Part shown: piece by piece, positions 1,550 through 61,851 of the stretch
How the letters are laid out: the number at the start of each line of letters is the position of its first letter
Position numbering within the stretch: the first letter of the stretch is position 1
Source of the DNA: Phoronis australis
Taxonomy: Eukaryota; Animalia; Phoronida
NCBI GenBank assembly: GCA_002633005.1
Contig: NMRA01000212.1
Coordinates: 47,272 to 111,271, forward strand
DNA: 64,000 nucleotides
Direction of reading: 5' to 3'
Position numbers and translations under genes: made by a program
Notes under the pieces: generated by a model
What the model was told of the DNA's origin: nothing
Databases searched by the model: none
What the model saw: only the letters and a program-made list of their open reading frames with translations

Positions 1550-1615
1550 AATGAGTCCTGCCTTGAAAATATCCTCGGTTAAGAAAAAGTTCATCATTCT
1601 GATGATGGAAGCACC
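1550..1615 (-). CDS. M1 aminopeptidase exon 9
   Basis: GASIIRMMNFFLTEDIFKAGLI; tttcag/gtaagt. Confidence 0.93.
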
Positions 1616-2257: not shown

Positions 2258-2392
2258 TTTTGCGTACGAAATTCTGTCAAAAATCTCGTTTATTTCGTCG
2301 GGATGATTCACAGGAACGAAGATTGGATGTGAGGAACCAAGCCCGTCGAGCTCCATCACGTCCTGCAGGTCTTCTGTAATGAACTGTTCCAT
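2258..2392 (-). CDS. M1 aminopeptidase exon 8 (catalytic Tyr)
   Basis: MEQFITEDLQDVMELDGLGSSHPI...EIFDRISYAK. Confidence 0.95.
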
Positions 2393-4369: not shown

Positions 4370-4483
4370 CATATCCCAAGAAGGCTCCAGGAAATCGGTT
4401 CCAAGATACTCCACGTAACTTGCAAAGCCCTCATTCAACCATAAGTCGTCCCACCAACTGGGAGTCACCAAGTTTCCAAACCA
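4370..4483 (-). CDS. M1 aminopeptidase exon 7 (third zinc ligand)
   Basis: [38 protein letters not shown]; ttcag/gtttga sites. Confidence 0.96.
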
Positions 4484-6258: not shown

Positions 6259-6413
6259 CTGATGAGCTAGTTCGTGTGCGACCACAACAGCAACACGTTG
6301 TTTGTTCGTAGCAGACGAAACTTTGGGATCATACAACAGCGCTGTCTCACGGTAGGTTATTAGGCCCCAATTCTCCATAGCTCCGGCAGCAAAATCTGGT
6401 ATGGCAATCATAT
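6259..6413 (-). CDS. M1 aminopeptidase exon 6 (GAMEN and HEXXH)
   Basis: [29 protein letters not shown]...VVAHELAHQ; catalytic motifs intact. Confidence 0.97.
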
Positions 6414-6822: not shown

Positions 6823-6943
6823 CCTGTTTTGGAAGTGGGTACGGTATTTTGAAGTATTCTTCAAAATATTCTAAAATTTCGACTCCCGCTTTCAACGCGT
6901 AAGCTGTTTGGTTGATTGCTTCAGGTCTGGCCCACACTCGAAC
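6823..6943 (-). CDS. M1 aminopeptidase exon 5
   Basis: VRVWARPEAINQTAYALKAGVEILEYFEEYFKIPYPLPKQ; canonical splice sites. Confidence 0.95.
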
Positions 6944-7996: not shown

Positions 7997-8114
7997 TGTT
8001 GTGTTCGTTGAGGTGTTTCGCTCTACTGCAACAAAATCACAGACGATGAATGCCAGGAGATAAGTGGACATTTTCACTGTAGTTTCGTAATGGTCAGCAA
8101 TCCAGCCGTTTCCT
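7997..8114 (-). CDS. M1 aminopeptidase exon 4
   Basis: [27 protein letters not shown]...; MSTYL motif; ctag/gtaagt sites; phases consistent. Confidence 0.93.
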
Positions 8115-8249: not shown

Positions 8250-8462
8250 GGATGGTGATGGTGGCGGGGCAGTCGTGATGGGTGGTGGTAATAGGTGGTG
8301 GTAATGGGTGGTGGGAGGTGATGGAGATGGTGGGAGGTGGTGTCGGGTGATGCTGGTGAGTGATGGTGGTGGGCGATGGTGATGGTGGGTGGTGATGGTG
8401 ATGGTGGATGGCTGGTTTTGGGGGAGGTAGTGATGGTGGTGGTGGTGGTTGCGGGTGGCGAT
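8250..8462. repeat. Degenerate (GGT/GAT)n microsatellite in aminopeptidase intron 3
   Basis: Visible low-complexity tract; it generates spurious His/Pro/Thr-rich ORFs. Confidence 0.9.
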
Positions 8463-9023: not shown

Positions 9024-9179
9024 CTGTCTTCTTTCTCCCTGATTGGCATATTTGAAATGCTGACCATGTGACTTTTCCTAACTAACGTAACCGTAAAATT
9101 TGATTTAATAGCTGGTTCATCAAAACACGGGAATGTTTTCCTGGCATCGGTCGGCTGCAATTGTGTTGTGGCTATATAT
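9024..9179 (-). CDS. M1 aminopeptidase exon 3, variant A (canonical APN-type)
   Basis: tttag acceptor, gtacgc donor, 156 nt, phase 2-2. Encodes YIATTQLQPTDARKTFPCFDEPAIKSNFTVTLVRKSHMVSISNMPIREKED(R). Confidence 0.93.
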
Positions 9180-9250
9180 CTAAAAACAAACACACCAAAA
9201 AATCAAAAATACAAACACGCAATATAACAGAACATGTGATCAAGGCTCAC

Positions 9251-9406
9251 CTATTTGTTTCGACGAGCCGGGGCATATTTGATAGGCTAATCATCGTTGC
9301 CTTTCTCACGAGGACCATTTTGAACTTAGATTTGAATGCCGGTTCGTCAAAACAAGGAAAAACTTTGCGAGCGAAAGTAGGAGCCAAAAAACTAGTTGCA
9401 ATATGT
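9251..9406 (-). CDS. M1 aminopeptidase exon 3, variant B (candidate mutually exclusive exon)
   Basis: tttcag acceptor, gtgagc donor, 156 nt, phase 2-2, no stop. Encodes HIATSFLAPTFARKVFPCFDEPAFKSKFKMVLVRKATMISLSNMPRLVETN(R). Not in the ORF track. Confidence 0.85.
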
Positions 9407-9663: not shown

Positions 9664-10168
9664 ACTGTTTTATTGCGCTCTTTATCGTAGTATGAGCTCC
9701 GATAGATACCGGCGAGATCATCTGCTAACCAACCAACAAAGCCTATCTTCAAAACGTATGTTTTCCCTGTCTCTAGAGCATTTCTCAGTGGCAAGACAAA
9801 AAATTGACGTTCCTTATCCTCAGTATAATCGTCAGTCGTAATCAGGTTTCCTCCTTTTTCTTCGAAACTGAAGTTTGTTACGTTGAGCTTATTGATATGA
9901 ACCTTGACCTCACGGGTGGGGGAAACACAAAGCAAATCGATCTCCACACTACCATTGAACGTAAAGTCTTTGGGATCTCCTTCATACATGTTTGGCTGCA
10001 ACTCCACCAGATAATGAACAGGATCTAAGTCAGTTGGAAGACGGACATTCGTAACATTTGGCGGGCTTGTGGTAGAGGATGGCGCGTTTGTTGTAGAGGA
10101 TGCCGAACCGGTTGAGGCCGATGCTGTAGGCTTAACAGTTGTGGTGTGGACGTCAGTTGAACATGGGC
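9664..10168 (-). CDS. M1 aminopeptidase exon 2: Ser/Thr-rich stalk and domain I
   Basis: taag acceptor, GT donor (gtaggt). Encodes PCSTDVHTTTVKPTAS...NVRLPTDLDPVHYLVELQP...DDLAGIYRSSY, containing the RLP..P.HY and G.YRS.Y M1 motifs. Confidence 0.93.
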
Positions 10169-36039: not shown

Positions 36040-36310
36040 AGTTAACGCACGGATCCACACTAGGTGAAGGCTCTTTGCCGCCTTGAGCACCCGACCCCGG
36101 CGCCTGTGGCGCAGCACACTGGCATACACAGGGCGAGCCGCCTCCGGCGAAGTGAACAAGTATTCCCACTCCCACAGCAATGGCAATTGCCAAAAGTGCC
36201 AGGACGAAGCCGATAGCAGTACTAACATGGCAGCCACTGGATCGCTTGCCGGAACCCATTATTTCAGTACCACTGGAAATATCAGACAATTCAAAATTGT
36301 CGCTACCCAT
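36040..36310 (-). CDS. M1 aminopeptidase (APN-like) coding exon 1: cytoplasmic tail, type II signal-anchor TM helix, start of Cys-rich stalk
   Basis: MGSDNFELSDIS...GCHVSTAIGFVLALLAIAIAVGVGILVHFAGG...PCVN. The phase-1 donor (T|gtaagt) matches the phase-1 acceptor of exon 9664-10168 (joined: PCVN-C-PCSTD). Typical APN topology. Confidence 0.85.
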
Positions 36311-38323: not shown

Positions 38324-38789
38324 GCCACCCGTTCTAAACGCCGTAACACCATTCAAGAGTCTATTAAATGTAAGCCTTTACATGCTTGCAGCTCACTGTA
38401 ATATATTTACTACAATACATTATACACTGCAACACTCTTCAACAAGCACAGAATGAGACGGCCTTTTCTTTGAGCAACGAGAACATGTGTGAGGTCGCAA
38501 GACCTAAGAGTTCTGGGATAGCGGTACTTTCATCTGAGGTTGTTACTTTGTAAATTCGGCCCAAAATACAGATGGCCGCTAGTCTGGAAGCTGAATATAA
38601 GCCAAAATCTTGGAAACAAGAGTAAACATCGACTTGATCCTGGAGAGCACTGCAACACGCATGTAGGACTCATTGAAGGGTGTTACGGTGTATAATGTAT
38701 TGTAGTAATATGTTACAGTGAGTTACAAGCATGTAACGGCTTGCATTTAATGGTATCTTGAATGCTGTTACGGCGTTTGGAACGGGTGC
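38324..38789. mobile_element. Mutator-like MITE (long TIRs, 9-bp TSD)
   Basis: ~110-bp imperfect inverted arms; flanking direct repeat GATAAAATC (38315-38323 and 38790-38798). Confidence 0.75.
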
Positions 38790-39617
38790 GATAAAATCAT
38801 GGTGATACCGTTACTGACTGACGTAGACTTTCGCAATTCCAATCCCGAAAAAATTCCATCGCGTCAGCATGTACTAAATAAGTGAAGATTGGCTTCTTGG
38901 CGCCATCTGGGTCTGTATATTCATTGTACTGAATATTTCATAAAAGACATTTAAAAAGTGAAGATTTGCCGGAATAGAAGANCACCATTCAAGAGTCTAT
39001 TAAATGCAAGCCTTTACATGCTTGCAGCTGACTGTAATATATTTACTACAATACATTATACACTGAAACACTCTTCAACAAGCACAGAATGAGACTGCCT
39101 TTTCTTTGAGCAACGAGAACATGTGTGAGGTCGCAAGACCTAAGAGTTCTGGGATAGCGGTACTTTCATCTGAGGTTGTTACTTTGTAAATTCGGCCCAA
39201 AATACAGATGGCCGCTAGTCTCGAAGCTGAATATAAGCCAAAATCTTGGAAACAAGAGTAAACATCGACTTGATCCTGGAGAGCACTGCAACACGCATGT
39301 AGGACTCATTGAAGGGTGTTACGGTGTATAATGTATTGTAGTAATATGTTACAGTGAGTTACAAGCATGTAACGGCTTGCATTTAATGGTATCTTGAATG
39401 CTGTTACGGCGTTTGGAACGGGTGCGATAAAATCATGGTGATACCGTTACTGACTGACGTAGACTTTCGCAATTCCAATCCCGAAAAAATTCCATCGCGT
39501 CAGCATGTACTAAATAAGTGAAGATTGGCTTCTTGGCGCCATCTGGGTCTGTATATTCATTGTACTGAATATTTCATAAAAGACATTTAAAAAGTGAAGA
39601 TTTGCCGGAATAGAAGA
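38347..39617. other. 635-bp near-identical tandem duplicate split by a single N (probable assembly artefact)
   Basis: 38347-38981 vs 38983-39617, ~5 substitutions by eye. Confidence 0.85.
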
Positions 39618-51095: not shown

Positions 51096-51413
51096 AAGCT
51101 TGTTTCACGGCTAAGTGAAAGAATGTTTCTCTCAGAATGCAACTTTCCTAATCACAAGACATAAAAAAAGAAGTTGTCTCACGGTATAGTTCATCATATT
51201 ACATCAAAAGTAGGTTTAGCAATGTTTTCAATATTGAACAGAGAACTTCACATATCCATTTACCAGACTGCCTGGCATACCACAGTACGCAAGGCATAGA
51301 AACATGCACACAACCATGAATCTGCACACATGAGTGTGCATACAAAATGAGTGTGCACACAAGCACGAGTGTGATAGTCACTGTACTTAGCTTTTGAAGC
51401 AGAAACTTCTTAC

Positions 51414-51526
51414 CTTCTGTTCTTTAAACCTCCCATCCACAACACTAGTAGCCAAGTCATCCATTCGTTTCCGCTCAATAATGTAGTCTAGCACAATCTC
51501 ACGAGCAGTTGGCAGAGCTAGTTGAC
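51414..51526 (-). CDS. MUS81: MUS81 exon (ERKxxxD catalytic motif)
   Basis: [30 protein letters not shown]. Confidence 0.96.
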
Positions 51527-52483
51527 CTGCAACACAATAAATGATCCATATGGGCCATGTTGTCGTGCCAAGATAATTTACAGCATGATCTTGAAAATGA
51601 GAAAACCGAGTGTGAACTGACTTAATGTTTGGAGCAACAACTTGACCGACTTCGCAAAAGAAATACCAGCATTGAATTAAAAATGAGTCGAAGGTAGTAA
51701 AATCCACTCTGCGACATCACTAAGACATCGTTTAAATTCATGCAAATAAGGGGAAGTCTCCTTGGCTGCTTGTGGTTTGGTAAATAAAATGCTAAAGATT
51801 TTAAAAATGTCACCTCCGTCACACACAAATCTCTGTCTGGTAGCATAGGACGGTGTCATCTGTTGTTAGCTAGAGAAACTGAGCATCCGTGATCTGATCC
51901 AGGATCATTGTTTATCATACATCGACTCACCAGTACTTAGTAACAATGTCTCTCAAAACCGATATAGAATCGAGTCTCCAATAAGAAGTGTTTACAATCA
52001 ACTCTGAAGAAACTTCCGAATTCCAAAACTACTCAGCGTATGCACATTATACTATCTGAGTAATAACCTGAGGACGGTGTCACATTAGAGTAATGTTTTA
52101 CTGAAAGTTGCCTATTTCTGCCTGGCCCCATCCTTTCTCATCAAGATGCTAAGACAAGCTTGGACATTTTGAGCACGATGTTGGTCTGTCAGAGCCTTAA
52201 ACTAATTAGCTGCTGTAGACACATTTCTAAATAGCCTTTGTTCAGTTTCGCCTGTTGTTCAGGAACACACGACACAGGGTCTCAATGCCATTCTGCACTG
52301 CCTAACGAACAACGAGTGAATAGGCATTTGTGAGACAGTGTTCATTCAATAAGACTTCAATGAATCTGTTTTTTATGCGAATTTTATCAAGAAGACAGCA
52401 TACACCAGGATAATGCAGTAGATTCGATGCAAACTCGGTCTCGTGAAAAAGATAGTGTTGTACCCTTTTGAGTGAGTACTCAC

Positions 52484-52608
52484 CAGGCAATGGTGCCACA
52501 CGTTCTCGAGCAATCCACAAGAAATCGCCTACATGCAACTTCTTAACTTCACAATCGATCCCATTTTTTATCAGCTCGGGTAGCAAATTCTGTTTGTCTG
52601 AGCCCACT
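52484..52608 (-). CDS. MUS81: MUS81 exon (ERCC4, GD motif)
   Basis: ...CEVKKLHVGDFLWIARE. Confidence 0.93.
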
Positions 52609-53812
52609 CTGTAAATTAAACAACGATCATCGAGCTCAAGATATGTCTGCAGCAAATATGCAGGATTAAAATGAACTTTAACAATACAGAATAAATGTGT
52701 TTGCTCCTCAAACAAAAATATCCCATTAGTTGAGAAAGCTACAAATGTCTCCAAAATGTCAAGAATAATTAATTTGCCTTAATTTGATTTTTTATAATTA
52801 TCAAACATTACATTAAGAATAATTGACTCTACAAGGTTATGTCTGATCCAAAAATGCAACATAATTAAATACAAAAATGATTTTTCCTCCCAGAACCACA
52901 CCAATGACTACCTTGAGACATTCCTTTCAATTCGAAACATAAAATGCTAGTTATACTGTACCAATGGTACCTCCCGCAAGAGTGAGGCAATAATTATCTC
53001 ACAATCTGAGTCTCCACTCACATGCCCAGGGCATTAGTGACAGTTGACAATTCAGCAAGCATGTTTTTGTCTTTTGAGGGTTGGCGAGGGTTGCACAGCA
53101 GTTCGTTTCTTTCAAAGACTTAGCGATCTAGTCACACCACATCTCTTTTGAGAGATCAGACAACTTAATCTTCATTTAACCCTGATTAGCTGGGTAAACG
53201 AATGAAAATCGAGTTAGGCTTTTTACTATCATAAAATCAAGCTCATCAAATTCCCTACCATGGTAATGATTTTATTTCCGTAATCAACAAGAATGTCAAA
53301 ACCATCAGCAACTCATTAGACAATAAAACACTTCAGAGACCATCAAGGTTGGGATGTCTGAAGTGACATGTATGCATAGTCTTGTTACAGCAATAGAATT
53401 CTGTCACTAAAAGAAATATTACTAGGCCGATTTTATGAGGGTAAAACGTTTACATTGATTTTTGTTTTTAGTTAGCTAAACCCCAAAGTCCAGCTTTAGT
53501 AACTATCCATTTAATCTTAACAATGGCCTTTAGTTAGCAATTTATGATTCGAATATGAAGCCTGTAATATTGACTTTTTGTGTTTTCCTCAATGCCATGA
53601 ACTTGGGTCATCTTTTATGTCAACTAACGTCTGATACAAAATCAGCCTTTCGCCATTTATAGTATTTATCTAATAAGGATATTATTAAAAACAAATGGAA
53701 TGTCGTGTTCAACAAAACTTGTTTCAAGGAAAATTTTCTGCTGAGATATTCTGACATGAAAAGACAGGAAGGGTTCCTTTAGGACCAGAACAAACTTTAC
53801 GTAAAGCCTTAC

Positions 53813-60466: not shown

Positions 60467-61678
60467 GTAATGAAAATCCCTCAACTCTTGAGACTTGACT
60501 GAGTAATAAGTAACTTGGCAGACTGAGACAGGCAGAGATGAGCCTACGAACTACGACATTTATTTTATAACGAGCTAAGAATTTCACTTCGTTCAGGGAT
60601 CCATTCTATTGCCTGATCACGCAGCAACTCGGTGATCAGCTTATACTTTTGTTTCTGTATCAACTTATTTGCTGAGGTACTGTACTGTTGACAGCCGGAA
60701 GGTTGCTGGTACAGTAATGAGTAATGACGTACACTGACAGTAAAACCTAGTCAATTACATCCCTTGTTGTCCCAGCAGGCATCCACAAGCAATAGTGTAC
60801 CCCCCCCCCCCTCCCTAAAAATACAGAAAAAATTGTCAAATGAAACATGGTTATTGATTTCACATTTAGTTATAATTAACACAGTAAATCACAACCGATT
60901 CCATGAAAATCTGTTGCAGTTCCCTTGAGCTTCCCACGCTGGGTGCCATTTTGAGGAAGTTACATGGAATCAGGCCTGTTCATGAACAAAATGTCCAAAA
61001 ATCTTACAAATTTCACCAGATATCTTCCCATGTTATTTTTTTGTTAGTGTCGCACCAGTTCACGCACTTCGTTCAGCCTTAGCTTTTTGTTGCCTAACTC
61101 GCGTGACGTCAGTTGCAATACTTTGTGGTTATCGTACGCGGTGAAAAAGTTAATGGTGACCAAAAAGTGAAGTTGGAATTCTTTGCCGAAGTCATCTTAA
61201 TTTCTATATATATCCTTCAGCTTTATTAAATGACGTTTTTATGTGTAAAATGTTTTTGGTGAGGTAAAAACCTCTTTTTCAGTGATGGGATCTGGCCTAC
61301 TGCCCATTTAAAATGCGTAGAATGAGATTGGTACAGGAACCGATCGAAAGTATTGTAGCCCTAGACAGCCAGCCGAGGAGCTACGTGTTGCCAAAGTTTC
61401 TGATATCGAAGTACTTTGACCTTTACCATACATAAATATTCCAAGAGTTCCTGCATCACTTGTTATGTTTATATGGAATTATTACCTCTACCAAGTTTTA
61501 GTTCAAAAAGCAATTCATAGGTGGTCACATAATTCTAAGGGCATGGAGTATAACGTTTACGAATTTCAGCCAAAAAACAGTCCAAAACGTACACTCACAA
61601 ATTCTTTTCTATTGACTTGAGTATCCTATTAGCACATGTCTTCATTTGTTTATCACTTGCACAATGTTTACTTTGTAG

Positions 61679-61851
61679 CCATGACGGCAAGGATGACAAG
61701 TGGTTGAAGGCACACTATGACCCTGTGGCTACATTGTATACATTATCACAGTGCATGACACTGGGGGACATTCATGCAGATGGCGAAACCAAACTGGTCA
61801 TTGCAGACCTTGGCACTGGCACTTATAACATGAAGCTTAAGGTTTACAAAG
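61679..61851 (+). CDS. BBS1: BBS1 (BBSome subunit) exon
   Basis: DKWLKAHYDPVATLYTLSQCMTLGDIHADGETKLVIADLGTGTYNMKLKVYKG, the recognisable BBS1 N-terminus. Confidence 0.95.

Follow-up and report, generated by a model that had tools for sequence, protein, structure and literature searches.

The stretch of DNA analyzed here (64,000 nucleotides (nt), hereafter the window) comes from Phoronis australis (assembly GCA_002633005.1, contig NMRA01000212.1, positions 47,272 to 111,271 of the forward strand) and carries on its minus strand a gene for an M1 aminopeptidase N (APN), continuing past the window start, in which two adjacent exons, A and B, encode alternative versions of a loop of the S1 substrate pocket. 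The switch between these exons is real, expressed and recurrent. The domains PF17900 (Peptidase_M1_N) and PF01433 (Peptidase_M1) were found above curated cut-offs on six exons of the gene, and the GAMEN motif, the zinc-binding motif HEXXH-18-E (here HELAH), the WLNEG sequence, which contains the third zinc ligand, and the catalytic Tyr all come from shared exons, hence are present in both isoforms. Assembled from nine exons, the coding sequence runs through 547 codons without a stop, whichever of A and B is included. The features of the gene, with the evidence for each in brackets, are as follows:

36040..36310, minus strand: first coding exon, encoding a short tail and a predicted transmembrane anchor, as in a type II membrane protein (exon end matched by an RNA loose end at 10168).
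9664..10168, minus strand: shared upstream exon, encoding a Ser/Thr-rich stalk and the start of the M1 N-terminal domain (RNA joints, relatives, Pfam).
9251..9406, minus strand: alternative exon B (minor), with an S1 loop of Phe/Ala/Phe at human APN positions 211/213/216 (RNA; PF17900, 51 bits).
9180..9250, minus strand: spacer intron between B and A, 71 nt, with two candidate branch-point motifs, at distances of 8 and 45 nt from the donor (read depth zero in bins that it fully contains).
9024..9179, minus strand: alternative exon A (major), with the canonical Gln/Gln/Asp loop, matching porcine and human APN (RNA; PF17900, 66.5 bits).
7997..8114, minus strand: shared downstream exon (RNA joints, relatives).
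6823..6943, minus strand: shared exon (RNA joints, relatives).
6259..6413, minus strand: shared exon with GAMEN and HELAH (RNA joints, PF01433).
4370..4483, minus strand: shared exon encoding WLNEG, which supplies the third zinc ligand and has Asn in place of the Lys of TRH-DE (relatives, Pfam; start given by an RNA loose end at 6259).
2258..2392, minus strand: shared exon encoding the catalytic Tyr (ISYAK) (relatives, Pfam).
1550..1615, minus strand: next exon (relatives); a further exon stub lies at about 1-51, at the window start.

The original prediction described A and B as adjacent exons of 156 nt, equal in phase, bounded by AG/GT and stop-free in one frame, and both the coordinates and the two translations agree with it. 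The exons are identical at 30 of 51 residue positions and at 55% of nucleotide positions, with different codons used for 19 of the 30 identical residues, and the proportion of synonymous differences (pS) is 0.98, synonymous sites being saturated, versus a nonsynonymous proportion (pN) of 0.31. Synonymous saturation with low pN indicates that both copies are old and constrained. Thus, A and B are the products of an old duplication, as had been proposed, with long-term purifying selection on both copies. A tblastn comparison with five relatives (molluscs and annelids) revealed no further duplicated exons of the APN gene within the window.

Splicing was followed in three runs of raw RNA reads that carry the label of this species (X2, X3 and X4, 18-19% of each being used) and in a contig set (X1), a joint being counted as listed only at three or more reads with two starts. 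Exon A is entered by the joint 9664>9179 (33, 22 and 2 reads in X2, X3 and X4, respectively) and left by 9024>8114 (36, 16 and 0 reads), and exon B is entered by 9664>9406 (3, 3 and 1 reads) and left by 9251>8114 (0, 4 and 1 reads), so that all four junctions expected of mutually exclusive exons are present in reads and each exon is joined to both shared neighbours. Pooled over the three runs, exon B accounts for about 10% of the junction reads (12 of 121); its read depth is about 1-6 over its full length, with exact boundaries, and falls to zero in bins wholly within the flanking introns. Neither the co-inclusion joint 9251>9179, which had been predicted to be absent, nor the double-skip joint 9664>8114 reached the listing threshold at this depth, which is limited, exon B having 12 junction reads. 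In bulk RNA, splicing of A and B is either-or.

Some reads match the window at only 90-95% likeness (22 of 129 in X2 and 10 of 72 in X3, about one-sixth); their source is either a divergent allele or a paralogue, in the form of a second APN copy, and they slightly inflate the count for exon A. Linked variants in these minority reads fall on exon A (9034-9170), several of them amino-acid-changing there, and on 7997-8114, 6823-6943 and 9664-10168. The intron after exon A contains a CAC-rich low-complexity tract (approximately 8250-8450), and RNA depth is low along this intron.

The reading frame does not enforce the choice between the exons: A and B joined, or neither, leave the frame likewise stop-free, so that none of the four combinations is guarded by a frameshift. 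Because an A+B product would keep the frame and thus not be removed by decay, exclusion may be enforced by the spacer, which measures 71 nt in the window and 61 nt (L001), 40 nt (L003) and about 57 nt (P0153) between the tandem copies of relatives described below. A distance of less than 50 nt between donor and branch point is a known cause of exon exclusion (PMC5740500), and spacers of 40-71 nt suggest steric exclusion, the spacer intron perhaps being too short to splice. Competing RNA structure around the spacer was considered as a mechanism and found to be unsupported (no unusual fold, z 0.65); the inverted repeats found are short.

Exons A and B align without gaps to residues 207-249 of human APN, and B aligns also to residues 196-239 of ERAP2 and to human APA. 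At human APN positions 211/213/216, exon A encodes Gln/Gln/Asp and exon B encodes Phe/Ala/Phe; the matching residues are D198/E200/Q203 of ERAP2 and D221/E223/D226 of APA. The S1 subsite of human APN takes in Q211, Q213, A214 and D216 (PMC6222927 Table 5), being formed by residues 211-216, 350-355, 469-477 and 895-897 together with the zinc-ligand region (PMC6222927). In porcine APN, the free amine of the substrate is bound by Gln208, Glu350 and Glu406 (PMC5431086), and the same amine-holding role is given to Gln213 (PMC7226027). Asp213, Glu215 and Asp218 of mouse APA, equally spaced, are specificity and amine-binding residues (PMC5587309, PMC2919393), mutation of Asp213/Asp218 shifting specificity (PMC5587309), and specificity-loop residues are also known in ERAP2 (Asp198/Glu200, PMC11284793) and ERAP1 (Glu183/Gln181, PMC9234130), within a family of shared motifs (PMC10221039). 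The mapping onto APN, APA and ERAP2, together with the published S1 subsite, upholds the earlier assignment of the changed residues to S1-pocket and amine-anchor positions.

The replacement of Gln213 by Ala would take away one of three groups that hold the alpha-amine and would free space beside it, and Phe at both 211 and 216 would abolish the polar, acidic floor of S1, leaving a hydrophobic pocket. With this floor lost, preference for Arg and Lys should drop, and hydrophobic or N-substituted residues (Pro, N-methyl) should be favoured at the P1 position of the substrate; lower efficiency would be expected on standard substrates. Exon B may be expected to fold normally, as does the predicted model of the B-type isoform of Potamilus (P0536), taken here to stand in for that of the window, with a predicted local distance difference test score (pLDDT) of 88-96 across the swapped exon and a target-normalised template modelling (TM) score of 0.94 against the closed APN structure 9cam. 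On balance, the isoform with exon B is probably an active zinc peptidase that holds the free amine less tightly, has a more hydrophobic S1 pocket and shows a P1 preference shifted from basic toward hydrophobic or N-substituted residues. Judged from its sequence, the single gene likely makes two peptide-trimming enzymes of different preference.

Comparison with relatives, represented by protein records, annotated gene models, contigs and metagenome loci, identified six further second copies of the exon. The gene models of Lottia gigantea (P0155) and the unionid mussel Sinanodonta woodiana (P0534) contain A and then B fused, exactly 52 residues apart; in a second unionid, Potamilus streckersoni (P0185/P0536), two models of one gene differ in the S1-loop exon and at the C-terminus; a mussel-like contig (P0153/P0312, counted once) reads through A, the spacer and B; and two loci (L001, 220-592; L003, 1629-1980) have paired 156-nt AG/GT exons, of which the second copy has Ala at 213 and Gln at 211. 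A search with P0153 as representative, together with a profile scan of 508 proteins, returned six close tandem cases, three of them among the copies already known. The other three were set aside: P0430 (a multi-exon repeat with Ala and then Glu, 146 residues apart), P0495 (a garbled repeat) and P0470 (a Glu/Glu tandem pair). Locus L063 has two copies of the motif 2.5 kb apart, one with Ala. In sawflies, Mytilus, amphioxus and termites, an Ala or Ser anchor occurs in whole-gene paralogues (P0133, P0355, P0350/P0353/P0363, P0057 and relatives).

Of the three substitutions in the original prediction, the loss of the anchor Gln to Ala is the one that recurs in every case: position 213 is Ala in all six other second copies, compared with 19 of the 401 distinct motifs collected, four of the 19 being B copies. 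Position 211 is hydrophobic in four of the six (Phe in two, Met in two, Gln in two), the FLAPT loop of the window being found also in both unionid copies, and the replacement of Asp216 by Phe is private to the window, the other six having Asp or Glu. Exon trees, which had only 50 or 43 columns and from which the Neodiprion row was omitted, were compared for one versus several origins of B by the approximately unbiased test (p-AU): the values were 0.46 (three B rows) and 0.11 (six B rows) when every column was used, and 0.095 (three rows) and 0.037 (Lottia and P0153) once the loop columns had been removed. Lottia B pairs with Lottia A (100/90, loop columns dropped). These results fit either repeated duplication with parallel Gln-to-Ala change or an old duplication with partial homogenisation. 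In the tree of the family, the APN of the window groups with spiralian APNs: it shares an unresolved fork (86/98) with Owenia, Macrostomum and the mollusc clade, and falls outside the latter (99/95).

The privacy of the Phe at 216 weakens the original prediction, and several points weigh against exon B as an active enzyme of altered preference. Support for exon B in RNA comes from about 7 distinct read starts, the X1 contigs contain exon A only, and the B copies of Lottia, Sinanodonta, L001, L003 and P0153 come from DNA or gene models. In the exon trees, the B copies fail to group together as a single clade, and the exon order is B-A in the window and A-B in the five tandem relatives. A clean swap of the S1-loop exon is found in only one of 20 annotated isoform sets; among 80 metagenome loci, most of them distant relatives, 77 have one copy and three have two; and P0470 has Glu at the anchor in both of its copies, with no Ala. 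Mutants of Glu215 in APA are reportedly crippled in catalysis, and loss of the anchor may have the same effect; the literature search found no mutant data on the amine-anchor residue.

It is possible, though we think it unlikely, that exon B gives a subunit with reduced or no catalytic activity that can nonetheless fold, dimerise and bind peptides, thereby tuning down surface APN or acting as a binding protein. The anchor is Gln or Glu in 342 of the 401 distinct motifs and binds the amine (PMC5431086), a splice-derived dominant-negative form is known for TRH-DE (PMC7225337 section 4), and exon B is the minor isoform. A null version, however, requires no specific residue, yet Ala is found in all seven second copies (window included) while positions 211 and 216 vary, and whole-gene paralogues with Ala and with intact GAMEN, HELAH and WLNEG exist (Mytilus P0355). 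That exon B is instead a neutral, decaying duplicate spliced by leak is very improbable: its low inclusion and its long branch in the exon trees are compatible with decay, but its frame and splice sites are intact despite saturated synonymous divergence, its boundaries in reads are exact, and its FLAPT loop recurs in two unionid mussels.

The original prediction also raised the acceptance of N-blocked, pyroglutamyl (pGlu) peptides, and exon B would in that case make APN an omega (pyroglutamyl) peptidase of the TRH-DE kind, with pGlu-blocked neuropeptides as substrates. TRH-DE (P0086) has a small residue, Ser, at the anchor position, as exon B has Ala, and amphioxus proteins named TRH-DE-like carry Ala there; the proposal is nevertheless improbable, the evidence for it being weakened by the shared exon, which in the window, Lottia and Potamilus encodes WLNEG, whereas TRH-DE (P0086) and amphioxus P0353 have WLKEG. 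The Lys of WLKEG, just before the third zinc ligand, presumably has a role in TRH-DE, where the critical substitutions are reportedly Ser269 and Lys463. Among whole proteins, this Lys accompanies a small anchor residue in 17 of 31 motifs versus a Gln or Glu anchor in 5 of 302. Two substitutions have been described as critical in TRH-DE (PMC7225337). Many of the insect paralogues with Ala or Ser at the anchor carry the TRH-DE-type Lys.

Other segments of the S1 pocket appear to be swapped in mollusc gene models, which were compared at annotation level only (20 isoform sets). In 12 of the 20, internal swaps are confined to S1-forming segments or to C-terminal exons after them: the S1 loop (211-216) in Potamilus; the GAMEN exon (approximately 382-409) in a second gene of Mercenaria (P0151/P0512) and in Ruditapes (P0152/P0514/P0516); the catalytic-Tyr exon (approximately 503) in Mercenaria (P0264); and a domain IV loop, mapping to the S1 cap at human APN 891-898, in Pecten, Mercenaria, Dreissena, Mya, Saccostrea, Crassostrea (three sets) and Mytilus californianus. 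The domain IV loop has up to five versions (Pecten P0006, P0121 and P0123-P0125, residues 831-856; Mercenaria P0165 and P0261-P0265, approximately 967). Five further sets differ at the N-terminus only, and three sets from Mytilus differ elsewhere as well (two over many exons) and resemble chimeras of tandem paralogues, which calls for caution with mollusc swaps as annotation-level data. As a tentative proposal, rather less likely than not, spiralian APN genes might build the S1 pocket from swappable exons at all four segments, and the change of Gln213 to Ala could have occurred independently on several occasions, so that splicing would program a combinatorial repertoire of peptidases.

Elsewhere in the window, an exon of the BBS1 gene (PF14779) is located at 61677-61850 on the plus strand, and ERCC4-domain exons at approximately 51390-52778 on the minus strand belong to a gene that we take to be MUS81. 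The segments 38442-38669 and 39078-39305 have identical translations and lie 636 nt apart, with a single N adjoining at 38982; they represent either a local duplication or an artefact of an assembly join.

The Phoronis gene resembles mammalian APN (ANPEP/CD13) in its type II membrane layout, its PF17900 and PF01433 domains, GAMEN, HEXXH-18-E and Tyr, and in the Gln-x-Gln...Asp loop of exon A. Unlike mammalian APN, for which the portions of the literature consulted mention no such swap, it exchanges the S1 loop by means of tandem exons. APA, ERAP1/ERAP2 and TRH-DE have their specificity set at the same loop positions, but these are separate vertebrate genes, whereas in Phoronis the variation lies within one gene, and exon B has an Ala at the anchor without the Lys of TRH-DE. 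In their equal length, homology, single phase and short spacer, A and B are like other tandem duplicated exon substitutions (mutually exclusive exons), which are ancient and often convergent (PMC9741552); unlike the usual conservative changes, however, the APN swap strikes the substrate-anchoring residues of an enzyme. The main text of a survey of human tandem exon events (PMC9741552) contains no mention of aminopeptidase, ANPEP or NPEPPS, and no published account of this aminopeptidase exon switch was found among titles and abstract openings, a coverage outside which lie supplementary exon tables and subscription journals. Isoforms of the A and B types are already present, uncommented, in public gene models.

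Tandem exon swaps mostly adjust channels and structural proteins, and the one in APN rewrites the residues by which an exopeptidase is defined. Should B have substrates of its own, cells could choose by splicing which neuropeptides or dietary peptides are trimmed by surface APN. A natural isoform with Ala, kept or re-invented between lineages, offers a direct test of the role of the amine-anchoring Gln. The mollusc isoform sets hint that a combinatorial active site has gone unnoticed in an enzyme family that is otherwise well studied, and if that is the case, vertebrates would reach a comparable repertoire via separate genes.
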